This document shows positions 305 to 11,287 of a stretch of DNA of 11,364 nt, piece after piece. Below the pieces are notes generated by a model. That model ran no database searches. It saw only the letters and a list, made by a program, of their open reading frames with translations, and was not told the DNA's origin. Each line of letters begins with the position of its first letter. Position 1 is the first letter of the stretch. The position numbers and the translations under genes were made by a program. The DNA comes from Verrucomicrobiota bacterium. Its GTDB lineage: Bacteria; Verrucomicrobiota; Lentisphaeria; UBA2565; JAYEIY01. Location of the stretch: positions 1 to 11,364 of the forward strand of contig JAYEIY010000142.1 of assembly GCA_034660375.1 (NCBI GenBank), read 5' to 3'.

Positions 305-2674
305 TTATTTTATAATGACTGAACCCGAATATTTATAACCTCTGCTTTTTGTTCCGCCTTTAGCAGCATATTCCCACTCTGCTTCCGTTGGTAAACGATA
401 AATATAATCTTCTGGTAAACGACCTGCCTTGCGTTCTCTATAAGTAAGTTTCTTGCAAAAATATACCGCATTATTCCAAGACACTTGTTCTACTGGATAA
501 TTAGCGCGTTTAATATAGCTTGAATTATTGCCCATAACTCGTTGGTATTCTGCTTGCGTCACCTCATACTTTCCAATCCAAAAATCATTGGTCAGGGTTA
601 CTTTATGAACAGGCTTTTCGTCACTTTCTCCGTTATTTGAGCCCATCTGAAAACTACCCGATTCCACATACACAAACTCCATGCCAAAATCAGGAATTTC
701 CCAGATAAGTTTTTCCTCGGCAAACACCTTGAATTCTTTTGCCTTAATACTCGAAAAATCGATTTTTAGTGCGGACTTTGCAAATTTTAGCATATTTCTC
801 CAGTTTTCGGAACTTTTTGCGGACTCCCCAAGTGAAATTAATTCTGCTAACGGTAATAAATTTAGTGCTTTTTCCCATTTTTGTATGGATTCAGACCACT
901 TTTCATTTTTAGCGAGTTGTTTTGCGGAGTCCGCAGAAAATTTTACATTTGCGTAGTCCGCACCACCAAATTCGATAAGTTTTTTCTCATCTGTCTTGGA
1001 AAGTGCTTTTTTATAGGTATTTTCGGCAATATTTACTGATTTTGTACCTTCTGAATAGATTTTTGCCTTTTTGTATTCGTTTTGAGCATTTTTCCAGAGT
1101 TTTGCGGAGTCCGCAAAATTTTCTCCACTTTTAAATATTTCTTCGGCATTTTTTTTGAGGTTTTCTGCGTTATTCCACAGAATTTCCGCATATTTTGCGG
1201 ACTGTGCATTTTCTGCTATTTTTGCGGAGTCCGCACTGCTTCGTTTTGCATTCAGAGCAGTTGAGCGTTCTTTGTCGAGTTCTTGTATTTTTGCACACTC
1301 CGCAATTACACTCTGATAATTTTTTAGTGCATTTCCATAGGATTTTTGTTTATAGAATTCTTCTGCGGTTTTTATTGTTATTTTTATTTTCCTTAATTTT
1401 TCTTTAAATCCTTCTCCTGGTTTTATTTTCTGTGTGTCTTTCCAGAGAATCTCAGCGTTACTTTTTGTCGGTGCGGTCCTAGAGAGTCCCTGGGATTTTA
1501 TGGGAGTTGTGTTTTGGGGTGTTTTTGTTTGCAGATTGGCTATAGGTAGACCTTTGAAGTAAAATAGGGAACCACTTGCAAGAAGTAAGATGAGTAGAGA
1601 CAGTTTCAGTAATCTGCCTGAAGGCAGAAGGGGAACACCGCCTGAAGGCGGTACTACAAACTTTTTTCCGCCAACAGCATTCACAAAATCAGAGCATGAT
1701 GAAAAGCGTTCATTTGGATCTTTGGCAAGGGCAGTAAAGAGAAATTTGTTTTGTTTGCGTTTTAGTTCTGAGAGGGATTCGGGGGTTTGTTCTTTAGCGA
1801 CCTGCATCATTACAAATGGATCATTGGTTTCAAATGCAGATGCAAAGGGAACTGCACCGCTGATGAGTTCATAAAACGTTACTGCGAGTGCATATTGGTC
1901 GGTTTGTTCATTTTGATGCTTCCCTACCCATTGCTCAGGAGCCATATACGGACGCGTGCCGCTGGTGTCGCTTACCTGATTGGAAACTCGACTCATTGAA
2001 GAACGGATTTCTGCAGCAAGACCAAAATCCAGTACCTTGATTTTGCCATCCTCTGTAATCATTACATTAGATGGTTTTATATCACGATGAACTATCTTTT
2101 CACCGTGTGCAAAATCCAGTGCCGTGGCAACTGCAGAACAAATTTCGACTGCCTTTTCAAAAGGGACTTTTTTATCATCGAACTGTCGTCGCCAGGAAGA
2201 GACAGTAGAACCTTTGATGTACTCCATTATGACCAAATAACCACCCTGCCCTACTTTTAACAAATTTTCAGAAGACTCATCTATTTTTTCGATTTTATGA
2301 AGATGTTCAAGAGATGCAATATTGGGGTGTTTCAACTTACTGACAAGAGCAAAATTTTTCCTAACATTTTCGAGTTCTTCGGGATCTTGCGAAATAAGAG
2401 CCGGAAGTACTTTTATAGCAACATAAAGTTGTGAAATAGTGTCGAACGCAAGATAGACTGCTCCAAAACCACCTGCTCCGAGTTTATGAAAAAGTTTATA
2501 CCTATCTATGCATCCAAGAACTTCTTCTCCTTTTGGACCCTGCGGTCGCTCCGTAACCATAGTCCAGATAGAATTTTCTTCTGTTTCCAAAAAAGGTTCC
2601 TGAATATTATTATCAACAACCTCTTTTCCCATAGAATTTTTTGTCGTAAAATCGCCTAATGATTTATTTGTCAT
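305..2674 (-). CDS. Transmembrane Hanks-type Ser/Thr protein kinase fused to an extracytoplasmic alpha-helical repeat region and the N-terminal two-thirds of an FGE-sulfatase (SUMF1 / C-type-lectin-fold) domain; ends at an in-frame TAA
   Basis: Kinase motifs in the translation: GAGGFGAVY (P-loop), VAIK, HRDIKPSN (catalytic loop), DFGLA, PYMAPE. One hydrophobic TM helix LLKLSLLILLLASGSLFYF. Then ~330 aa of degenerate helical repeats with a recurring ADSAK motif. Then FGE-domain motifs MGS..DEKPVH.V, YRLPTEAEWEYAAKGG. Weak SD-like AAGGA about 12 nt upstream of the ATG. Stop TAA at 305-307. Confidence 0.85.
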   Translation of the reverse strand: MTNKSLGDFTTKNSMGKEVVDNNIQEPFLETEENSIWTMVTERPQGPKGEEVLGCIDRYKLFHKLGAGGFGAVYLAFDTISQLYVAIKVLPALISQDPEELENVRKNFALVSKLKHPNIASLEHLHKIEKIDESSENLLKVGQGGYLVIMEYIKGSTVSSWRRQFDDKKVPFEKAVEICSAVATALDFAHGEKIVHRDIKPSNVMITEDGKIKVLDFGLAAEIRSSMSRVSNQVSDTSGTRPYMAPEQWVGKHQNEQTDQYALAVTFYELISGAVPFASAFETNDPFVMMQVAKEQTPESLSELKRKQNKFLFTALAKDPNERFSSCSDFVNAVGGKKFVVPPSGGVPLLPSGRLLKLSLLILLLASGSLFYFKGLPIANLQTKTPQNTTPIKSQGLSRTAPTKSNAEILWKDTQKIKPGEGFKEKLRKIKITIKTAEEFYKQKSYGNALKNYQSVIAECAKIQELDKERSTALNAKRSSADSAKIAENAQSAKYAEILWNNAENLKKNAEEIFKSGENFADSAKLWKNAQNEYKKAKIYSEGTKSVNIAENTYKKALSKTDEKKLIEFGGADYANVKFSADSAKQLAKNEKWSESIQKWEKALNLLPLAELISLGESAKSSENWRNMLKFAKSALKIDFSSIKAKEFKVFAEEKLIWEIPDFGMEFVYVESGSFQMGSNNGESDEKPVHKVTLTNDFWIGKYEVTQAEYQRVMGNNSSYIKRANYPVEQVSWNNAVYFCKKLTYRERKAGRLPEDYIYRLPTEAEWEYAAKGGTKSRGYKYSGSVIIK
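816..1236. repeat. Intragenic DNA repeats inside the kinase gene: near-palindromic 15-mer TTTGCGGAGTCCGCA. Exact copies at 921-935, 1101-1115 and 1222-1236; variants at 816-830, 951-962 and 1186-1200. Each encodes an ADSAK motif of the helical-repeat region.
   Basis: Direct reading of the plus strand. The reverse complement tgcggactccgcaaa translates to A-D-S-A-K. Confidence 0.8.
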
Positions 2675-2675
2675 A

Positions 2676-3120
2676 TTATATTTTGTCCTTTGCTCTTAAT
2701 CATTTCCGCTCTACGAGCTAAGAAATACTTGCATTCGCAAATACCGTTCGGGGGCTCACTTTCCTGCCACATAATCATTCTGTCAATCCGCACTTCGCCC
2801 TTTCCATATCTTTTGCTCTTAATCATTTTGTCACATAATCATTTTGTCACATAATCATTCTGTCAATCTGTCCTTCGCCCTTAATCATTTCCGCTCTACG
2901 AGCTAAGAAATATTTGCATTCGCAAATACCGTTCGGGGGCTCACTTTCCTGTCACATAATCATTCTGTCAATCCGCACTTCGCCCTTTCCATATCTTTTG
3001 CTCTTAATCATTTTGCCACATAATTATTCTGTCAATCTGTCCTTCGCCCTTAATCATTTCCGCTCTACGAGCTAAGAAATACTTGCATTCGCAAATACCG
3101 TTCGGGGACTCACTTTCCTG
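2676..3120. repeat. Composite intergenic repeat block, about 2.5 tandem copies of a ~170-185-bp unit. Three copies of a 61-bp conserved element (2706-2766, 2891-2951, 3060-3120), with CACATAATCATT(C/T)TGTCAAT(C) modules (reverse-oriented GACAGAAT iterons), CTTCGCCC and ATCTTTTGCTCTTAATCATT modules.
   Basis: Sequence identity between copies is visible directly, e.g. ccgctctacgagctaagaaatacttgcattcgcaaataccgttcgggggctcactttcctg x3 with 1-2 substitutions. The last copy abuts, and supplies, the TGA stop of the downstream gene at 3121-3123. Confidence 0.9.
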
Positions 3121-4650
3121 TCACACACCCTTTTGTTCGGGCACTTCCAGTACTTCGCCAATAAAACTCTCCTTTGGAAGGTTTTTGAGTCCTCTGGTAA
3201 GCCAGATCCATTCATTTTGACCATCAGTTATTGCAAATGCATCATCTTGTCTGTATAGTTTCCATGGTGTATGAATCTCTGGGAATATTTCTGATAAAGG
3301 CAACCAGTGATTAAGGATTAGGTATTTTTCTTTTAATTCATCATATCTTTTCATTAGAATTGCGGAGAAAAATTCATTTTCAGTAATATTTTTTAAAAAC
3401 TTTCCTAAAAAGCCACTTTTTTTATCTTTACGCATCTTATAGATTTTTGTTTCAAGCGGAAAGCATGATGAACTGTCTCGTGGGGAGAGCGATAATTCAA
3501 AGTATCTCTTATCATTCAAAGAGATCTTATGCTTATTAATTTTTACTGCATTAATACATGTTTCTGAAACAGAACTCAGATTCTCAATAACAGCAAAGCT
3601 ATCATTTAGCTCAATTGATGCGTGAAGTTTGCTTATCGCCTGATTTTTTCTTCTCAATTTTTGATTACTCCAGTCTTCGCTCTCGTCCGGCAGATTTCTT
3701 GTTATTAAATCCATTTTTTTCTCTTTATAGTTTCGTGCTCTGCCCAGAGAGATCTTCTTTGAATAAAGCTGCAGAAAGCTCCCGTCATTCATTTTTAGTG
3801 TAAGGCGTTTATTTTTTTCAGAATTATATGGAATCTGCAAGTTTTTTTTCTCAAGATTTTCTGGAGGTTCTGCAAGGCAAAGGGCAACTTCTTGCCAGAG
3901 CGAAGATTTTCTTAACTCTTTAAAAAGCTCAATTGAAGAAATATCTTGTTTATTTTTCTTTAGTTCATCCAAAATAGGCAGGCGAATATCACCACCTGCT
4001 TTTTGTGATGTAATATCGCCAATATTTATACTCATATTTTCAAAAAGTTTACCCGCATCTTCATTTTCAGGATGAACCTCAATCTCTATTTGTTCAGAAA
4101 AACATTTTTCTTCTTTTTCCAATTCATAAATAAAGTAGACCCAAGCAGATTGCTCAGCACCTTTAGAGCCTGCCTTTGGTCTATAATTTACCTTGATTTC
4201 TCTTTTTGAAGAAATTCTTGAGTAACGGATATGTGCTTCCTTAAAACTTCCGTCAGGCAACTCTAAAATAAGCTTAAAATTCTCTGCGTTCTTTGCATTT
4301 GGGCTTTTGGGAATAATCCGAAATTGCAGGGCCGCCATATTTTTTTCAATAAAAACAGATGAACCAGCATTCCACTCAAGAGAAAAATCTTCACAATCTG
4401 AATCTAAGTTTGTATCAACTTCTTCTATAACTTTCTCTTCGTTTCGATTGATAATCCCGCAGATGCTTTCTTCGGAAATTTTGAGAGTTTTACTCTCTGA
4501 GAGCGCATCATTTGAGTCTTCGTTGAAATCACTTTTTTGAGGTCCCTGTTCGATATGGCTATCGTTATTTTCTACTTTTGTACCACATTCAGAACAAAAC
4601 AGTGCATCTTCCGATAATATTTCACTGCATTCCGGGCATTTAAAACTCAC
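3121..4650 (-). CDS. N-terminal zinc-ribbon (CPEC...CSECG) protein with a C-terminal FHA (forkhead-associated, phospho-Thr-binding)-like domain; likely partner of the adjacent Ser/Thr kinase
   Basis: 509-aa ORF with GTG start 7 nt after GGAGG. N-terminus CPECSEILSEDALFCSECG. FHA-like motifs: SLGRARN...DLITRN (GR loop), ISKLHASIEL (SxxH), NDSFAVIENLSSVSETCINAVKI...ISLNDKRYFEL. Stop TGA is embedded in the repeat module. Confidence 0.7.
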   Translation of the reverse strand: MSFKCPECSEILSEDALFCSECGTKVENNDSHIEQGPQKSDFNEDSNDALSESKTLKISEESICGIINRNEEKVIEEVDTNLDSDCEDFSLEWNAGSSVFIEKNMAALQFRIIPKSPNAKNAENFKLILELPDGSFKEAHIRYSRISSKREIKVNYRPKAGSKGAEQSAWVYFIYELEKEEKCFSEQIEIEVHPENEDAGKLFENMSINIGDITSQKAGGDIRLPILDELKKNKQDISSIELFKELRKSSLWQEVALCLAEPPENLEKKNLQIPYNSEKNKRLTLKMNDGSFLQLYSKKISLGRARNYKEKKMDLITRNLPDESEDWSNQKLRRKNQAISKLHASIELNDSFAVIENLSSVSETCINAVKINKHKISLNDKRYFELSLSPRDSSSCFPLETKIYKMRKDKKSGFLGKFLKNITENEFFSAILMKRYDELKEKYLILNHWLPLSEIFPEIHTPWKLYRQDDAFAITDGQNEWIWLTRGLKNLPKESFIGEVLEVPEQKGV

Positions 4651-4680
4651 TGAATACCTCCTTTTATTTTAACTGCCAAT

Positions 4681-4716
4681 TTGACAGAATTATTAAGAGC
4701 AAAAGATCTATTTTAT
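4681..4716. repeat. Single forward-oriented module TTGACAGAATTATTAAGAGCAAAAGATCTATTTTAT, 30 bp upstream (coding sense) of the FHA-protein start
   Basis: Matches the iteron plus AAGAGCAAAAGAT modules seen at 2800-2830 (inverted), 6676-6840, 10036-10068 and 10851-10882. Confidence 0.8.
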
Positions 4717-5164
4717 ATCTTTGAACTAGGGCTGAAAGCGCGCAATAAAACAATCTCTAAATTCATAAAAAATTTTCTCAGATTGTGTTTTTATCCATTT
4801 TGAAGAAGAAGTCTTTATTTCTTCCAATAATTTTGCTGGTGCAATCTTTTTTGATATTTGACATAGTATATGAACGTGGTCATTAATCCTGCCGATAATT
4901 ATTGAGGGTGAATTCTGTTTTTCACAAATTGTAGCTACATATACATGTAAATTTGCTTGCAGTTTCTCCAGAATAATTACCCGTTCAGTTCAATTTATGT
5001 GAAATCTAATATGTGTATAGCTGTGATAATGATTGTGCCATATTTATTACGGGTCTTCAGCCCTCTTATTCTTGTTACATCCGTTTTCCCGAAGCGTTGT
5101 CCCGGGCTATGGAATTATGGGCCTTCTTCGTCCTTATCCGTGTTTATCCGTGTCCATCTGTGGT

Positions 5165-6652
5165 TTACCTATTAATATTACTCCTATTTTTTGCTACTTC
5201 GGCGTTGGCATCAAGGGCCTTTTCCATAATTTTTTCAAGTCTATCTGAATTTTCTTTTATTATTTTTTCTCTTTCTTCGTATCCTTTATTTTCTGCTTCC
5301 ATCATTGCTGCGAGAGCCTTTGCGGCTTCTGGCGAACTTTCTGCAGCTACAGCAAGACGTTCTTCAGGTGTCATTAATTTTTTGTCATCCTGTTGCTTAA
5401 ATTTGAGTAGTCTTTGAGCCTCTTCTTCAGGCAGTGCAGCAATCATTTCTTTTATATCGTGTTTTGAATACATTTCTAGCTTTGCTTTTTGATCATCGCG
5501 AGTTATTTGTTGCTTCTGTTGTTTTATCTTTAACCAGTCTTCAGTTTCTTTTAGTTCTTGATTATGCGTTCTATCCTGCTGATCAAGTCCCTGAGTAAAC
5601 TGCAAGTCTTCGAGTTCAAGTTGATGCAATCCATCTTTTTTATCTATTTCATGATTATGAACCTGCTTTAAGACCTGCATTTCATGTTCCATATTCTCAC
5701 GGCTTACTCCGTATTCATGAAGAAGTTGTTCTTCATACATTTTGAGATCATTATCCGACTTTATTTCATCCATTTCATCCGCACGAACAGCATCACGAAG
5801 ACGCTTTTTCAGAACATTTTCACGGCATCTTATTTCTATATCACCGGATTTCTTACGCAATTCTTCATAATCTTCTCCGTAAAACTGAATGGCGGCAACC
5901 CTCACCTCTTCTATTCCTAAATGCTTAGATGTTTTATTAATGACATCAGCAAGAGAATCTTCGAACGCACTTCTTACGTCAGAAGATTTAATTAAATCAT
6001 CAATATTAGTCGAATTAGTCAAATTTTTGACAGCCTGAGATACATCACGCTCTACTACTTCTGTTATTTGCTGATAAGTTACCTGTCTGGAATCTTTCAT
6101 CAAATTATTAATAAGTTCATCGATTCTTTTTAAATTAAACTGAAAAACTGATTCAGTATAAAAACTCAATTCCATATCTTCTTTGGAGCGAAGTCCCTTC
6201 TTTTGAAAAGGCAAGATAATTTCACCACTATCAACCAATAAAATACTCTTTATGGCAGAGGAAAAGATGCTGGCAAATATCCCGTCTTTCAAAGAATATT
6301 TGCCGGCTTCAATAACTTTTGACACCTTTGCATCTTTGAGAACAACAATTGCGGTTCCAGGCTGAATAATAAGAAAATTTTTTACATTGCGTCTTATGTC
6401 AGCGACCTCGATTCGTTGCAAAAATGCTTCCGGCGGACGATTGATTATATTTCCAGTTACAAGTTTGCGTTCTTCTGGATGCAATCTGCTTTTGCAATGC
6501 GGACAAAATTCAGATTCCACACCGACCCATTTATCACAAGTTCCGCACTTGCTCCAGCCCTTTGGTGCCGGCTCTCCGCATTTACTACAAAATCTAGCAC
6601 GCTTTTTTACAGTATGACCACATTTTTCACACTTATTACTAAAAATACCCAT
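5165..6652 (-). CDS. Double zinc-ribbon / SPFH (band-7, stomatin-prohibitin-flotillin family) domain protein with a long C-terminal coiled coil
   Basis: 495-aa ORF. ATG is 8 nt after GGAGG. N-terminus CEKCG...FCSKCG...CGTCDK...CPHCK. SPFH-like core IEVADIRRNVKNFLIIQPGTAIVVL ... GIEEVRVAAIQF. C-terminal ~200 aa is charged heptad-rich (EEQLLHEY...KETEDWLKIKQQKQQ). Stop TAA. Confidence 0.8.
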   Translation of the reverse strand: MGIFSNKCEKCGHTVKKRARFCSKCGEPAPKGWSKCGTCDKWVGVESEFCPHCKSRLHPEERKLVTGNIINRPPEAFLQRIEVADIRRNVKNFLIIQPGTAIVVLKDAKVSKVIEAGKYSLKDGIFASIFSSAIKSILLVDSGEIILPFQKKGLRSKEDMELSFYTESVFQFNLKRIDELINNLMKDSRQVTYQQITEVVERDVSQAVKNLTNSTNIDDLIKSSDVRSAFEDSLADVINKTSKHLGIEEVRVAAIQFYGEDYEELRKKSGDIEIRCRENVLKKRLRDAVRADEMDEIKSDNDLKMYEEQLLHEYGVSRENMEHEMQVLKQVHNHEIDKKDGLHQLELEDLQFTQGLDQQDRTHNQELKETEDWLKIKQQKQQITRDDQKAKLEMYSKHDIKEMIAALPEEEAQRLLKFKQQDDKKLMTPEERLAVAAESSPEAAKALAAMMEAENKGYEEREKIIKENSDRLEKIMEKALDANAEVAKNRSNINR

Positions 6653-6675
6653 GATAAATCCTCCTTTTATTTATT

Positions 6676-6840
6676 TTGACAGAATTATTATGTGACAGAA
6701 TTATTAAGAACAAAGAGCTTATTTTTTTTATTGACAGAATTATTATGTGACAGAATTATTAAGAACAAAGAGCTTATTTTTTTTATTGACAGAATTATTA
6801 TGTGACAGAATCATTAAGAACAAGAGCCTATTTTTTTATT
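6676..6840. repeat. Perfect tandem repeat, 3 x 55 bp (TTGACAGAATTATTATGTGACAGAATTATTAAGAACAAAGAGCTTATTTTTTTTA). Each unit has two 13-bp iterons GACAGAATTATTA and a T8 homopolymer. It sits immediately upstream of the SPFH gene start on the opposite strand.
   Basis: Copies start at 6676, 6731 and 6786. Copies 1 and 2 are identical; copy 3 has about 3 changes. Confidence 0.95.
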
Positions 6841-7006
6841 TTTTTTATTTGAACTTCTTTATTATTAAAATTTATCCAAATCAGACTATTCAAATTAGTA
6901 TGTAACAATAAACGCTGAATATTATTCTTATAATTTTCCTGTTTTCTAGAAATAGCAGATAAATGAAAAGCTGTTGTTGTATTTAATAAATGGAATTTTT
7001 GTTTAC

Positions 7007-7627
7007 CTATCTTTTTTTATCCACATAAATATCAACAGAATGTATCACTTTTTCTGAACCTCCGAGAAAGAATACCAAAGCTTCGTTGTATAAATTTATA
7101 TCTAAAAAAACTCCCCAATTATTAAGTAACTCAGTTAATATGTTCAGTAACATTGCACTTTCAGAATCCCTATCCTCAAAATTTTTATTATTAATTGAAA
7201 ATCGTTTTCTTGATTGAAAATCCAAAGATGTAGAAACGAATTTATATTCTACCGACAGGGGCGTAAAATTAATTAATTTACCATGCCTTACATTAGTTAA
7301 TAATAAATAGTTTATTAATTGATTTTGATGAAACTCATTCAACTTTTCTACAGTTTTCAATTCATAAATAATGGAGTTTTCAACAACTAAATCTAAAAAG
7401 TAAGTTTTTCTGAAATTTTTGTAAATAATATGAATAGGAATTTCTTTTTCTACTTTTAAACCTATATTTTTACATAAAATACTCAATTGAGTCTGATAAA
7501 TATCTTCGTTGCAAAAACGTCCCAATTCGTTATGAATTTCATATACCTGCCCCATAACTAAGTAATCAATTTCATGAAATTGATTTTGATTTATTACTTT
7601 TATTTTTTCTCTACATTCAAACGCCAT
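7007..7627 (-). CDS. GxxExxY-family protein (PD-(D/E)XK nuclease-like superfamily)
   Basis: 206 aa. N-terminal pattern EIDYLVMGQVYEIHNELGRFCNEDIYQTQLSILCKNIGLKVEKEIPIHIIYK...YFLDLVVENSIIYELKTVEKL...HQNQLINYLLLTNVRHGKLINF. It matches the family architecture recalled from memory: (YKIIG..VY..LG.GLLE..Y...L...GL.VE...P..Y.G...RLDLLVE...IVELK.VE...H.AQLL.YL.....GLLINF), including the D...ExK core. Stop TAG. Confidence 0.65.
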   Translation of the reverse strand: MAFECREKIKVINQNQFHEIDYLVMGQVYEIHNELGRFCNEDIYQTQLSILCKNIGLKVEKEIPIHIIYKNFRKTYFLDLVVENSIIYELKTVEKLNEFHQNQLINYLLLTNVRHGKLINFTPLSVEYKFVSTSLDFQSRKRFSINNKNFEDRDSESAMLLNILTELLNNWGVFLDINLYNEALVFFLGGSEKVIHSVDIYVDKKR

Positions 7628-7628
7628 A

Positions 7629-7855
7629 TCCTTCGCCCTTAATTATTCTGTCACTTAATCATTCTGTCAATCTGTCCTTCGCCCTTTCCTATCTTTTGCC
7701 CTTAATTATTCCCGCTCTACGAGCTAAGAAATACTTGCATTCGCAAATACCGTTCGAGGGCTCACTTTCCTGCCACTTAATCATTCTGTCAATCTGTCCT
7801 TCGCCCTTAATTATTCTGTCAATCTGTCCTTCGCCCTTAATCATTCTCTTGATTT
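7629..7855. repeat. Composite intergenic repeat block: CTTCGCCC modules, reverse-oriented iterons (AATTATTCTGTCACTTAATCATTCTGTCAATCTG), and the fourth copy of the 61-bp element (7722-7772)
   Basis: Direct sequence identity to 2676-3120 modules: ccgctctacgagctaagaaatacttgcattcgcaaataccgttcgagggctcactttcctg. Confidence 0.9.
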
Positions 7856-8755
7856 TTACCAAAGTTTGGTTTTTCCCGTAGAAAAAATTGCTTTGAGATT
7901 ATTGCTTTGTGTTGAACTAGAAGCCTTAAATGCTAAAGAGATAAATTGTTCTACCTGCTTGTCTGTATCTTTTATTTTCTTGATTTTCTTAAAATCTTTT
8001 GCTTCTATATATTCATAAATTATTCCGCTAGGATAGACATCCTTTATGTACATAATATGAATTTTTATTATTTCCCAATTGTTTTCAAGCAAGCGACAAG
8101 TAATAATCCCTGTTTTTCCCGACAAGGTATTTACAAGTGTATCTACTTTTCTCTGGAGCCCACTTACGCTAGTTCCAAAGGCATTCTGCAAGACTTTTGC
8201 ATCAAGGACAATTTCTGTAGAAGCAATACTCGCAATGACTTTGTTACAGGATCTATTTACATGTGGGAGGACTTCTGATGTAAGTTTTTTAATAACTTCT
8301 CTTTTAGCATTGTCTTCTCCTACAACTCTTTCACTCATAGCAGTAATTTGTTCACGAGCCAACAAGTATTCTCTATTTAATCTGACAGATAGATCCAATT
8401 GTCCTTTGTAGACATAGTATGATGCATATTTATTAAATAGTTTATTATCACAATCCATATCAACTGTTACAAAAGGAGTCTCAGTTACAACGAGTTTAAA
8501 TCCAAGTCTGGCAATCTCACCCTCGACTTTCCTGACTAAATCATTGTCATTGCCTTCAACTTTAAGAGGAATTTTTCTTGGTTGAATTGATGCAATTTTT
8601 TGTAGTCCAAGCAAGCCACCTGAGTCACTTTTAGCTTGTGCAGTTCTTATAATTACTGCTGTTTGAGCTGTTGCTACAGTCTGCTCAACTCTTTTGGGAG
8701 TACGAGCGCAACCTACGAATACGAGTACTGCGATTAATAAAACTAGATTTCTCAT
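7856..8755 (-). CDS. Lipoprotein of unknown function (signal peptide MRNLVLLIAVLVFVGC, lipobox VFVGC)
   Basis: 299-aa ORF. ATG is 8 nt after AAGGAGA. Starts 14 bp downstream of the stop of the 8770..9990 gene, so probably co-transcribed with it. No recognisable catalytic motifs. Confidence 0.7.
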   Translation of the reverse strand: MRNLVLLIAVLVFVGCARTPKRVEQTVATAQTAVIIRTAQAKSDSGGLLGLQKIASIQPRKIPLKVEGNDNDLVRKVEGEIARLGFKLVVTETPFVTVDMDCDNKLFNKYASYYVYKGQLDLSVRLNREYLLAREQITAMSERVVGEDNAKREVIKKLTSEVLPHVNRSCNKVIASIASTEIVLDAKVLQNAFGTSVSGLQRKVDTLVNTLSGKTGIITCRLLENNWEIIKIHIMYIKDVYPSGIIYEYIEAKDFKKIKKIKDTDKQVEQFISLAFKASSSTQSNNLKAIFSTGKTKLW

Positions 8756-8769
8756 TTGTTTCTCCTTTA

Positions 8770-9990
8770 TTATCTTATTTGAGTCATTTTTTTAAGAATA
8801 AAAATTGCCAACACAAGGGCAATCAACGCAGCGACAACACCACCTGCAATCATTAAAATAGTCTTGTTATCTTTAATTGCTTTTTTTACTTTATAATCGG
8901 GGGTACGCTCAGCTGTATCAATAAATTGACCAGTTACTGTCTTGCCCCAGAGAAGTTGATTATTTTTAAAATTTCTTAGCGAAAATGCAACTGTTATACT
9001 ATATTCTTTCTGATCTTTTGCTTTATTGTCTTTCTGTTCAAGATTTTTTACTACTCCGGTCATATAAAGATTTTCTTTTGAAATTTTAGTTGTAACTCCG
9101 GAAGCACCGCTTTCCGTTCCTATATCAAAAACCTGCTCGACCTGCTTCATCATTCTTTTTATCTCCCGCATATCCGGTAGAGTTCCGGAACCTGCACCCG
9201 CAAGATCCAATGCAATAGAATGTGCAACTCTTTTATTTTGTGGATTTGAAGGACTAGAGAAAAATGCAAGCTTTGTGTTCCCAACAGCCACAATCTCTGA
9301 CAAAATAGTATCTGTAAGCTGATCTGCTTTTTCTCCAATAAGAGGAAGTACAAAAACATTGCCGTCAGGAATTTGTGATATTTTTTCCTGCAAATCTTTC
9401 AAAGCATTTTGACCAAGATTTTCCGCTGCAAAAAGTAGGCCTTTTGAAATATTTTCCAGTTTCATTATTTTATGCTCGCCAACTATATTTCCTGACCACA
9501 GTATCTTTTGAGATCTTAGATCCTGTAGAGTCAATGTAACCCTAAAGATTCCAGAACCATCTACAACCGTGGCCTCAAGAACTTTTCCATACAAATATGC
9601 TTCTACACCTTGTTTTTTGGTCTTTTCCAATGAAAGAAAAGTATCAAGATCAATTGTTGATTCCTGTCCCATAAGAGCTAACTCAAGCTCAGACCCTGAA
9701 AATGCATCAGTTTCCATTTCCGACATCCTACGTTCGGCTTCATCTCTTGTAATAAATTCATACTCTCCAGGAACCCTTAACAATCCTCCCCTAAACACAA
9801 AGTTCATCTCCTTTGCACCCGCAATTCCTAGAAATGCGATTTTTTTGACATCCACCTTGCGTTTTGTCAACTCCTTGATTGTTTTGAATGCCGCATCTTC
9901 CGCTGCATAGTCAATCTCTCTTTCCGCCGCCGAGATTAAAAATCCAGCACACACGAGTAACACCATTAATACTTTTCTTGCTTGTTTCAT
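8770..9990 (-). CDS. Exported protein of unknown function with an N-terminal signal peptide and a C-terminal transmembrane anchor (ILMIAGGVVAALIALVLAIFIL)
   Basis: 406-aa ORF. ATG is 8 nt after GGAGG. Hydrophobic N-terminus MKQARKVLMVLLVCAGFLISAA. Ends with tandem stops TAA TAA. Confidence 0.7.
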   Translation of the reverse strand: MKQARKVLMVLLVCAGFLISAAEREIDYAAEDAAFKTIKELTKRKVDVKKIAFLGIAGAKEMNFVFRGGLLRVPGEYEFITRDEAERRMSEMETDAFSGSELELALMGQESTIDLDTFLSLEKTKKQGVEAYLYGKVLEATVVDGSGIFRVTLTLQDLRSQKILWSGNIVGEHKIMKLENISKGLLFAAENLGQNALKDLQEKISQIPDGNVFVLPLIGEKADQLTDTILSEIVAVGNTKLAFFSSPSNPQNKRVAHSIALDLAGAGSGTLPDMREIKRMMKQVEQVFDIGTESGASGVTTKISKENLYMTGVVKNLEQKDNKAKDQKEYSITVAFSLRNFKNNQLLWGKTVTGQFIDTAERTPDYKVKKAIKDNKTILMIAGGVVAALIALVLAIFILKKMTQIR

Positions 9991-10035
9991 CTTACTACCT
10001 CCATTTTTGTTAGTTAATTGGTTAATTGGTTTGAT

Positions 10036-10068
10036 TTGACAGAATAATTATGTGACAGAATAATTAAG
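10036..10068. repeat. Forward-oriented double iteron TTGACAGAATAATTATGTGACAGAATAATTAAG, between the vapC stop and the start of the 406-aa gene
   Basis: Same 13-mer / 16-bp period architecture as 6676-6840. Confidence 0.85.
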
Positions 10069-10171
10069 TGCTTTTTTTACTACTTCTTCTACTTTGTCCA
10101 TCTCTACAATAACCTGCCTGAGTTCCGCACTTATGCGGATTATAGTATAATAAAGCTAATTAAAAAGAAAT

Positions 10172-10558
10172 TTAATAAAGCAAAAGTCCATCAATATTCT
10201 TAAAGTGCTTATCAAGTGTAAACAATGCTAACCCATATTGAATAGTTGTTGCTGCAATCCAAATATCATTGGTGGGAATAGGTTTGCCTTTTTCTTTCAA
10301 CTGCTTAAAAACAGAAGCATAAATTTCGGATGTTGTTTCATATAAAGACAAAAAATCAACACGTGGAGTATCTAGAAATTCCTCCAAGTAATAAATATTC
10401 TGTTTTTCTTTATTTCCCAATTAAAAACCAGAATAAATTTCTCCTAAAATTATTGCCGAAATGCCTATGTACTCTGTAGATTTTTATACCTTTATCACTT
10501 CAGGATTATTTCTCTTGAATTCAGAATAAATATTAGTGTCTATTAATATTTTTTTCAT
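10172..10558 (-). pseudogene. vapC: vapC-like PIN-domain toxin interrupted by two in-frame TAA codons (10484-10486 and 10421-10423), with no frameshift
   Basis: Conceptual translation in one frame: MKKILIDTNIYSEFKRNNPEVIKV*KSTEYIGISAIILGEIYSGF*LGNKEKQNIYYLEEFLDTPRVDFLSLYETTSEIYASVFKQLKEKGKPIPTNDIWIAATTIQYGLALFTLDKHFKNIDGLLLY. Typical VapC motifs: ILIDTN, SAI.LGE, NDIWIAATA. Its ATG overlaps the vapB stop as ATGA. Confidence 0.7.
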
Positions 10559-10812
10559 TTCCAAAGCCCCTTGTCAATTTGAGAAAAAGATTTGGTATTT
10601 GCATTAAATTCTTTATATTCTTCTTCTGTCCAGGTTCCCGCTAAACTATCTAAGTCGTCATATTTTACCGAAAACTGTTTTTTAGATACTTCTGTTCCCT
10701 GTCTCAATATTTTAAGAACACAAGAGTTCAAACTCGTATTTGTTTTTCTTGCTTTATCCTTTAATGTGTTAACTAACTCAGCATCAATACTTTTAATTGT
10801 TAGTGTTGACAT
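10555..10812 (-). CDS. vapB: VapB-family antitoxin (ribbon-helix-helix N-terminus, C-terminal toxin-binding tail with LAGTWTEEEYKEF motif)
   Basis: 85 aa, MSTLTIKSIDAELVNTLKDKARKTNTSLNSCVLKILRQ (FitA/RHH-like). Stop TGA overlaps the vapC start (ATGA). SD GGGGAG 8 nt upstream. Confidence 0.75.
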   Translation of the reverse strand: MSTLTIKSIDAELVNTLKDKARKTNTSLNSCVLKILRQGTEVSKKQFSVKYDDLDSLAGTWTEEEYKEFNANTKSFSQIDKGLWK

Positions 10813-10850
10813 AATATATTCTCCCCTGTTTTGTTTGTTAACTGCTTTTT

Positions 10851-10882
10851 ATTGACAGAATTATCAAGAGCTAAGAAGCTCT
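10851..10882. repeat. Single forward iteron module ATTGACAGAATTATCAAGAGCTAAGAAGCTCT upstream of vapB
   Basis: Matches the TTGACAGAAT..ATTAAGAGC module family. Confidence 0.75.
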
Positions 10883-11013: not shown

Positions 11014-11241
11014 CTTATCCACGTTCCACGATAACACCGTATTCATCCCTAAAAGGGATATCTCAATAAGTTCCCATTCCAAAGACCTTCCATTTATGAT
11101 TTTTTTTATACCTAATAGATAAATACATTAATTTGTATCCTTATTTTTCTAATCTTTTGTTCTTCAAAAATTCCTATATCAAAAGTACCTAATGTCTTTT
11201 TATTGAAACTTGTTTTTTGTTTTTGACCTGAAAGGTTATTT

Positions 11242-11277
11242 TATATTAGCCCAGGGTTTAAACCCTGGGTTAATATA
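11242..11277. other. 36-bp near-perfect palindrome TATATTAGCCCAGGGTTT|AAACCCTGGGTTAATATA (core 20-bp perfect palindrome 11250-11269)
   Basis: Reverse complement of the left half equals the right half except for one position. Confidence 0.8.
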
Positions 11278-11287
11278 AAAAATATAG

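Follow-up and report, generated by a model that had tools for sequence, protein, structure and literature searches.

Paired intergenic repeats around a GxxExxY nuclease gene in a Verrucomicrobiota contig: probable ends of a small selfish element

Introduction

What are the short repeats that fill nearly every intergenic gap of the Verrucomicrobiota contig JAYEIY010000142.1, and which of its genes, if any, do they serve? The contig, analyzed here over its entire NCBI length of 11,364 bp and hereinafter called the window, belongs to a metagenome-assembled genome (MAG) whose closest relatives are Victivallales and Lentisphaerae; in a Pfam scan of the major open reading frames (ORFs), every sizeable gene (A to H, in order of coordinate) lies on the minus strand. 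An earlier note on this DNA had described the repeats as one modular family that separates functionally unrelated genes in a cassette-like organization. We consider another explanation probable, namely that the principal repeats, or iterons, which come in twos at each end with a spacing of 15-16 bp, belong as subterminal direct repeats to the terminal inverted repeats (TIRs) that bound small selfish elements whose sole gene encodes a two-domain GxxExxY nuclease. Under this explanation, the window would contain one gene-bearing, frameshifted copy (~6676-7670), inserted in a lipoprotein-lipoprotein-SPFH-Zn-ribbon gene cluster, along with gene-less leftovers, i.e., solo 3'-type ends located upstream of genes B, C, F and H, 23-45 nt from their start codons, and 5'-type arrays upstream of genes D and A. 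Loci retrieved for comparison are denoted by L numbers.

Repeat modules of the window

The iteron TGACAGAATNATTA is matched with at most one mismatch at 20 positions, compared to 0.05 expected from shuffled sequences. All 20 matches are intergenic and confined to the six gaps named in the earlier note: 2772-3034 (six, minus strand), 4682 (plus), 6677-6816 (six, plus), 7640-7821 (four, minus), 10037 and 10053 (plus), and 10853 (plus). The iterons mostly form doublets, and the spacing between adjacent units is 16 bp in 8 of 8 cases. Two further short modules are similarly enriched, GGGCGAAG (the reverse complement of CTTCGCCC) with 8 copies versus 0.12 expected and AAGAGCAAAAGATMT with 3 copies versus 0.03 expected. 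The description in the earlier note of a 13-bp iteron with 16-bp spacing and of additional modules, in both orientations relative to the uniformly oriented genes, is thus borne out by the counts and by the strands of the iterons. Two other claims hold in part: the '61-bp element' is a genuine repeat but a 58-nt block, and the first 25 bp of the window, which had been considered to be of the same flavor, consist of an ATTAATC heptamer and have only the core AATCATTA in common with the iteron.

The 58-nt block (GAAAGTGAGCCCCCGAACGG...GTAGAGCGG) is present in four copies with at most one mismatch (2706-2763, 2891-2948, 3060-3117 and 7712-7769), lies within an iteron, where it follows TGRCAG, and has been amplified together with it; no RNA-structure signal was detected for the block on either strand (z between -0.6 and +0.6), nor was it matched in any fetched locus from other organisms. 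On the coding strand, a variable AAGRGCRAARGA module comes after each iteron unit. Higher-order repetition was detected as well, with Tandem Repeats Finder reporting a 55-bp unit in three copies at 6676-6837 and a 30-bp unit in 2.4 copies at 7776-7847, and a repeat finder delineating a 166-185-bp unit with ~2.4 copies in 2684-3203 and one more at 7690-7855. The repeats also interrupt a separately produced Logan assembly of this organism (L001, L018), which indicates that they are real and that the tandem copy numbers are provisional, being those of this MAG contig only. No Rfam family corresponds to the repeats, literature searches for the motif strings returned chance matches only, and the doublet is not present in IMG/VR.

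Inverted doublets bracket the nuclease gene in the window and in its homologues

Gene D (7007-7627, minus strand), which encodes a GxxExxY nuclease of the PDDEXK_3 family, is bracketed by doublets that read inward from both sides, at 7640-7669 (minus) upstream and at 6677-6816 (plus) downstream, with ~35 of 42 positions in common between the two. The gene-proximal 5' TIR (7629-7670, minus) reads TTGACAGAATGATTAAGTGACAGAATAATTAAGGGCGAAGGA followed by the ATG and contains the iterons 7640-7653 and 7656-7669; it also includes an 11 of 12 match to TTGACA-N17-AATAAT reading into gene D and a GAAGGA sequence that resembles a Shine-Dalgarno site. It is extended outward by a 5'-type array (7671-7855, minus). 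Present there are the iterons 7778-7791 and 7808-7821, another iteron that the 58-nt block (7712-7769) divides, the 30-bp tandem and GGGCGAAG modules. The 3' TIR (6676-6840, plus) consists of the three 55-bp units, with iterons at 6677, 6693, 6732, 6748, 6787 and 6803, and its outermost copy reaches to 23 nt upstream of the SPFH start codon.

The same arrangement, with inverted doublets flanking a homologous gene, was found at all six independent loci, i.e., the window and five further ones, including representatives of Victivallales, Opitutae and KSB1. In Victivallales-type contigs (L024/L030), the nuclease gene is located between thiE and a DinG-like helicase gene; in Opitutae (L041), between addB-like and addA-like genes; in L031/L033, after a glycosyltransferase gene; the remaining two are L028, where the doublets lie at the gene borders, and the homologue locus of a KSB1 MAG (L047). 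The layout is shared throughout, with a doublet or array reading inward just upstream of the ATG and an inverted doublet at or over the stop codon. The linkage is tight: in L024 (16 kb), L028 and L030, every motif match lies within ~90 nt of the ends of the nuclease gene, compared to an estimated ~0.3 chance matches per 16-kb locus. The motif and its spacer are lineage-specific yet concordant between both ends of an element (GACAGAATCATT, GGCAAAATGATT or GGCAAAACGATT, with a period of 15 or 16). In addition, among 75 long homologues, at least 11 have a C-terminal tail that results from read-through into the 3' doublet, e.g., KNDSVTNDSV or NDFAANDFV, and these doublet-derived tails extend the association of the nuclease with the motif beyond the loci for which DNA was fetched.

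Single-domain GxxExxY genes are also located between inverted repeats, of other sequence. On a Bacteroides finegoldii plasmid (L048, 1155-1626), the inverted repeat is 30 nt long with 90% complementarity and is built of CAGAGGAC sub-repeats, and the fold of this element has its ends paired (z = -4.8); on pTS1 of Treponema saccharophilum (L049, 1107-1567), the gene lies between 16-nt inverted repeats (88%). Judging from these sequences, bracketing by inverted repeats may be general for the GxxExxY family. No flanking inverted repeat was found around the GIY-YIG mini-gene of L041.

The GxxExxY nuclease

The assignment of gene D is based on matches to Pfam PDDEXK_3 (PF13366; E=4.5e-28, 98.4 bits versus a cut-off of 22) and NCBIfam TIGR04256 (E=4e-26, 91.6 bits versus a cut-off of 35), and agrees with the NCBI annotation as a GxxExxY protein (MEA2012300.1). 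Its homologues are two-domain proteins of ~265 aa with 45-53% identity, among which the residues of the PD-(D/E)XK triad, D79, E89 and K91, are invariant or nearly so; the catalytic residues have thus been retained. The C-terminal half forms a second alpha/beta domain without a separate match, and an AlphaFold model of a two-domain GxxExxY protein has a pLDDT of 96.4. A profile of 85 homologues retrieves 489 clusters at 50% identity with E<=1e-30, and 13,148 such clusters match the PDDEXK_3/GxxExxY family at E<=1e-3. Searches of PADLOC, PHROGs and IMG/VR gave no match to the nuclease, and a PDB sequence search found nothing. In a survey of the PD-(D/E)XK superfamily, the function of PDDEXK_3 is listed as unknown, with multiple transfers (PMC3424549).

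In the window, the nuclease gene (6834-7627, minus) is frameshifted: the ORF 7007-7627 covers aa 1-205 and the remainder is encoded in another frame (7010-6801/6834), such that the reading frame runs on into the repeats, to ~6834; tblastn with full-length homologues yields two high-scoring segment pairs in different frames. The frameshift (7007-7022) coincides with an A/T homopolymer run, and the homologues are uninterrupted at ~265 aa. Judged by its sequence, the window copy is probably non-functional, or else the contig carries an error.

The linkage of the motif to the gene, their co-variation between lineages and the retained active site together suggest that the nuclease recognizes and cuts the element ends. 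Specifically, it would bind the paired sites and cleave at the ends, and such cleavage could disseminate both gene-bearing and gene-less copies, by analogy with REPIN/RAYT or with insertion sequences and their miniature derivatives. The proposal of the earlier note that the repeats are recognition sites or a miniature family is retained as far as recognition-type sites of a mobile or miniature family are concerned, but a dedicated tyrosine or serine recombinase is unneeded, and the 'nuclease-like' gene, which had been taken for cargo, is instead the protein associated with the repeats.

A conserved host cluster and its interruptions

Four of the genes around the element belong together. Gene E (7856-8755, minus) encodes a lipoprotein, gene F (8770-9990, minus) an LpoB-like lipoprotein, gene C (5165-6652, minus) a Zn-ribbon and SPFH protein, and gene B (3121-4650, minus) a Zn-ribbon and forkhead-associated (FHA) protein. 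Orthologues of F-E-C-B are contiguous and co-oriented in the contigs that carry the closest homologues of gene C (41-43% identity), with gaps of 139-161 nt between E and C and of 19-283 nt between C and B. The corresponding gaps in the window are 1203 nt (gene D and its repeats) and 514 nt (an IS200-like Y1_Tnp pseudogene and one repeat). On this comparative sequence evidence, F-E-C-B is a conserved cluster that was interrupted twice in the window, apparently by selfish inserts. The claim that all of the separated genes are functionally unrelated is therefore not sustained, nor are the repeats integron-like sites between unrelated cassettes. No match to the iteron motif within 2 mismatches was detected in the intergenic regions of the cluster at three orthologous loci; the E-C gap of the relative L022 nonetheless opens with a degenerate doublet. 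In the relatives, the region upstream of the F orthologue (L019, 7250-7423; L021, 7222-7422; L022, 6050-6238) contains a conserved GCGTGAGAAYNTAGTATTA..GCGAATATNTAGTATAA sequence, which may represent the native promoter or operator of the lipoprotein-SPFH cluster.

The remaining repeats of the window adjoin genes as well. A single iteron (4682-4695) followed by AAGAGCAAAAGATCT constitutes a solo 3'-type end (4681-4716, plus) located 30 nt upstream of the start of the Zn-ribbon/FHA gene and adjoining the IS200-like pseudogene. A solo 3'-type doublet (10036-10068, plus; iterons 10037-10050 and 10053-10066) lies upstream of the lipoprotein operon, 45 nt from its start codon, and a solo 3'-type single unit (10851-10882, plus), in which the hairpin AGAGCTAAGAAGCTCT follows an iteron with one mismatch (10853-10866), lies upstream of gene H, a ribbon-helix-helix (RHH) antitoxin gene, 39 nt from the start codon. 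Upstream of the kinase gene A, an amplified 5'-type array (2676-3120, minus; ~2.4 copies of 185 bp) contains six iterons (2772-3034), four GGGCGAAG modules and three 58-nt blocks and terminates with ATTAAGAGCAAAGGA-N13-ATG. This array ends in ATTAAGRGCRAAGGA...ATG, as the one at gene D does, which suggests that the 5' end of the element was copied ahead of the kinase gene.

Such placement, with copies 23-45 nt upstream of four start codons, is what would be expected if the doublets were primarily host regulatory DNA, i.e., promoters (TTGACA-N17-AATNAT) and/or operators of a global regulator shared by many genes. The sigma-70 consensus is indeed matched at 11 of 12 positions at 10036-10064 (plus) and 7670-7642 (minus) and at 10 of 12 positions at five further places, and AGAATnATTAT resembles the 7-1-7 boxes of the Fur family. 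Nevertheless, upstream of B, C, F and H the promoter-like sequence is directed away from the gene next to it; the number of promoter-like sites in the window (41) is not above the shuffle expectation (36.4); and TTGACA is not conserved elsewhere, the variants of other lineages beginning with GGCAAAAT or GACAGAAT after A, G or T. Furthermore, the motif accompanies the nuclease gene in operon contexts that are unrelated to each other, and the three orthologous clusters mentioned above lack it within 2 mismatches, the degenerate doublet of L022 notwithstanding. The modules are not simply a shared promoter, as the earlier note had stated; a primarily regulatory role is unlikely, and the promoter likeness is at most a lineage-specific by-product; in the lineage of the window, the doublet at the 5' end might double as an inward-facing sigma-70-type promoter. 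Resemblance to sigma-54 sites and to the Pho box was rejected by eye, the spacing and the key GG/GC or the 11-bp period being unfit.

The second interruption of the cluster brings up another candidate owner of the repeats. The IS200-like Y1_Tnp pseudogene (~4730-5040, minus; E=6e-10, with an in-frame stop) abuts the solo repeat 4681-4716, and RAYT genes, the tyrosine transposases associated with REP (repetitive extragenic palindromic) elements, typically have their own REPs on either side (PMC3337134). The iterons could then be REP or REPIN sequences served by a RAYT-type Y1 gene of which this pseudogene is the remnant. This we consider highly improbable: at the six nuclease loci, no Y1 gene adjoins the motif; the units have neither the form of palindromic hairpins nor a GTAG or CGTC tag; and the motif is present on just one side of the Y1 remnant, which has a different repeat, TTATCCGTGT in two copies, upstream. 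The latter is a 10-bp tandem (5134-5153, in the pseudogene region 4730-5164, minus) and resembles the CACACGGATTCG inverted repeat that flanks the Treponema GxxExxY gene (L049).

Gene-less copies and variation between strains

The motif is not confined to this island, a point that the earlier note had proposed to check. The exact doublet pattern was found in at least 4 GTDB genomes and at least 12 metagenome contigs with a GC content of 31-66%, including Gemmataceae and Chlamydiota; the element type is present in several bacterial phyla. Gene-less inverted doublet pairs of 55-95 bp were identified in L003, L006, L012 (two), L015, L017 and L041. In the first five of these loci, 0-35 nt separate the inverted doublets; the pair in L041, located 5 kb away, has the TTCGACAG spacer that is specific to this genome and is also present in its gene-bearing ends. 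The longest array observed consists of 11 head-to-tail 16-bp motif units between co-oriented genes (L007, 1075-1235). In L004 (4230-4520), from another MAG, a doublet shares its intergenic region with many further short tandem motifs (GGTGCGGTGCGGGATGAA in two copies, TTCACTATTCACTATT and GTTAAGGGTTAAGGG); these genomes may thus harbor more than one repeat family of this kind.

In L031 and L033, members of the motif family occupy nearly every intergenic gap, as in the window, and these two loci provide the strain comparison, in another organism, that the earlier note had called for. They are 99% identical as far as the outer edge of the 3' doublet, beyond which L033 contains ~3 kb of toxin-antitoxin cassettes (1894-4892) and L031 ~18 nt (6845-6862). 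The L033 block comprises TumE, HicAB and Phd/YoeB cassettes, and motif copies in the same orientation stand ahead of most of these; in one gap, the doublet is present as three 39-bp copies in tandem. A cassette-sized indel thus starts exactly at the repeat edge, as would be expected if genes or gene pairs (toxin-antitoxin, IS200-like, nuclease) bounded by doublets were shuffled by site-specific recombination in the manner of integrons, and the RHH-PIN pair of the window is likewise located between two same-orientation copies. Yet on its right-hand side the L033 indel does not end at a doublet, neither the window nor the 5-20-kb loci that were examined encode an integrase or any other recombinase, the genes F-E-C-B are conserved as a cluster rather than being a set of cassettes, and the sites are direct 12-14-mers, unlike the imperfect palindromes of attC. 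Given these observations, integron-like exchange appears improbable.

Predicted RNA pairing of the ends and the question of mobility

In the RNA folds of three elements, namely that of the window, that of L041 and the single-domain GxxExxY gene of Bacteroides, both ends pair in the minimum free energy (MFE) as well as in the centroid structure, forming a stem of 30-40 bp. By analogy with the intervening sequences (IVS) of 23S rRNA, such a stem, when present in operon transcripts, could be cut by RNase III, and this cutting could make insertion between co-transcribed genes tolerable.

Conceivably, the inverted ends could act at this level only, as RNase III stems that excise the nuclease ORF from transcripts, the elements themselves being immobile, vertically inherited relics. 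Apart from the folds, there is a precedent in the Coxiella IVS, with its 28-bp TIR stem cut by RNase III (PMC4990558). Two nuclease homologues (P0109 and P0135), present in 13 and 10 contigs, are each always found at one locus, and such stability across 10-13 samples also fits this explanation. What it leaves unaccounted for are the solo ends, the arrays of up to 11 units (L007), the many intergenic gene-less copies and the retained catalytic residues; moreover, the 12-mer is conserved in sequence across 31-66% GC although a stem needs just complementarity. We therefore regard a role at the RNA level alone as quite improbable and prefer the interpretation of the iterons as ends of elements associated with the nuclease.

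Several observations weigh against the preferred interpretation. The single-locus homologues argue against multicopy behavior of the kind displayed by insertion sequences (IS) and agree with a gene that is kept in single copy, as RAYTs are, or is inherited vertically. The element copies showed no consistent target-site duplication; TTA...TAA (possibly TA) flanks are present at some of them (L024, L041) and not at L003, L006, L012 and L028. The E-C gaps without the element that serve for comparison belong to distant relatives (41-43% amino acid identity) and not to close strains. The gene-bearing sample consists of six loci, and the motif-selected loci (L002-L017) were picked by a pattern with a fixed 16-bp spacing. 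The solo ends in the window are mostly in one orientation and directly upstream of genes, which simple decay does not predict, and the 58-nt block and the tandem amplifications are left unexplained. Finally, to our knowledge, a PD-(D/E)XK nuclease alone is no known transposase.

Implications

The association of one GxxExxY subfamily with a DNA site that brackets its gene yields a testable hypothesis of site-specific binding and cleavage, and suggests the nature of elements, such as rRNA intervening sequences, that consist of an ORF between inverted repeats. A more sweeping proposition, which we put forward only tentatively and on the basis of sequence comparison, is that two-domain GxxExxY proteins mobilize an unrecognized class of transposable or homing elements with doublet ends, REPIN-like copies and capture of cassettes at the ends, a class that would include the IVS-type elements. 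If this is the case, a Cas4-like PD-(D/E)XK nuclease would be a stand-alone transposase or homing enzyme. Searches of the literature on the motif, the GxxExxY name and related concepts retrieved no description of such an element; the name itself appears in three papers of the library searched, all on other subjects. On the practical side, the repeats break short-read assemblies of MAGs from the PVC (Planctomycetes-Verrucomicrobia-Chlamydiae) group, give rise to small ORFs that are spurious, e.g., MILS... and NDSV..., and can mislead promoter and operon annotation.

Other features of the window

Gene A (305-2674, minus) encodes a Ser/Thr kinase fused to an FGE-sulfatase (formylglycine-generating enzyme) domain. 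The kinase-FGE gene (38-2674, minus) appears to be split by a stop or frameshift near 299-304, with FGE profile positions 4-135 in ORF 305-2674 and positions 169-254 in ORF 38-298. Its central region (806-1304) contains six copies of TTTTGCGGAGTCCGCA, a coding, protein-level repeat that is unrelated to the intergenic family. Gene G (10172-10420, minus) is a truncated PIN gene: in the 10172-10560 region, only positions 59-119 of the profile of this VapC-like toxin are covered. The RHH antitoxin encoded upstream by gene H (10555-10812, minus) is intact, which points to a decaying toxin-antitoxin pair. A perfect 19-bp palindrome, TTTTATATTAGCCCAGGGTTTAAACCCTGGGTTAATATAAAA, is present at 11224-11283, with a sub-threshold Rfam match to the Acido-Lenti-1 RNA (33.9 bits versus a gathering score of 37); strings like ATATTAGCCYRGGGT are found also in the E-C gaps of the relatives L021 and L022.

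Comparison with known systems

Arrays of clustered repeats invite comparison with CRISPR and integrons, and the earlier note was right to set both aside, given the direct, sequence-conserved units and the irregular spacings. Here, unlike in CRISPR, the spacings are 16, 30, 55 and 185 bp, with repeated 'spacers'. With integron attC arrays, the window shares repeats between co-oriented small genes, including toxin-antitoxin pairs, and strain-level cassette variation at the repeat edge; it differs in the lack of an integrase, in units that are sequence-conserved direct 14-mers, a single cluster of which is not self-complementary, and in that most of the separated window genes belong to one conserved cluster. 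Plasmid-type iterons differ in that no Rep protein was found in the window by the Pfam scan.

Closer parallels are provided by transposable elements. The TIRs composed of repeated subterminal sites, the 55-95-bp gene-less derivatives, the solo ends and the indel adjoining an element end are all reminiscent of IS and their miniature inverted-repeat derivatives (MITEs), and the ends of the transposons Tn7 and Mu contain several transposase-binding sites. The differences are that the element encodes no DDE, HUH, serine or tyrosine transposase, its sole ORF being the Cas4-like PD-(D/E)XK nuclease, that no consistent target-site duplication was found and that the gene-bearing copy was not seen at multiple loci.

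The REPIN-RAYT system (PMC3337134) resembles the present one in that a gene is flanked by its own inverted repeats, at a single locus in the two homologues checked here, in the many intergenic gene-less inverted pairs and in the co-variation of repeat and protein by lineage, a likeness that is one of analogy only. It differs in the flanked gene, which here is PDDEXK_3 at 6 of 6 loci and not an HUH Y1 transposase, and in the units, which here are direct-repeat 12-14-mers, with no hairpin in TGACAGAATNATTA and no GTAG/CGTC tag.

The 23S rRNA IVS of Leptospira and Coxiella are alike in being small selfish elements with one small ORF of unknown role, TIRs that form a long RNA stem and direct repeats, short and in tandem, immediately upstream of this ORF, in having a mobility that is suspected and never shown, and in that their insertion is tolerated inside a transcription unit. 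In Coxiella, the S23p ORF lies between inverted repeats whose 28-bp stem is cut by RNase III, GACAGAT heptamers precede the ORF, and the origin of such elements is still described as unclear (PMC4990558). The elements described here encode a PD-(D/E)XK nuclease rather than a four-helix-bundle protein (S23p), reside in gaps between protein-coding genes rather than in helix 45 of 23S rRNA, and have doublet ends of a conserved 12-14-mer and numerous gene-less copies, with RNase III cutting predicted in their case. In protein, repeat type and host sites, the paired-end nuclease elements are distinct from both IVS and REPIN-RAYT.

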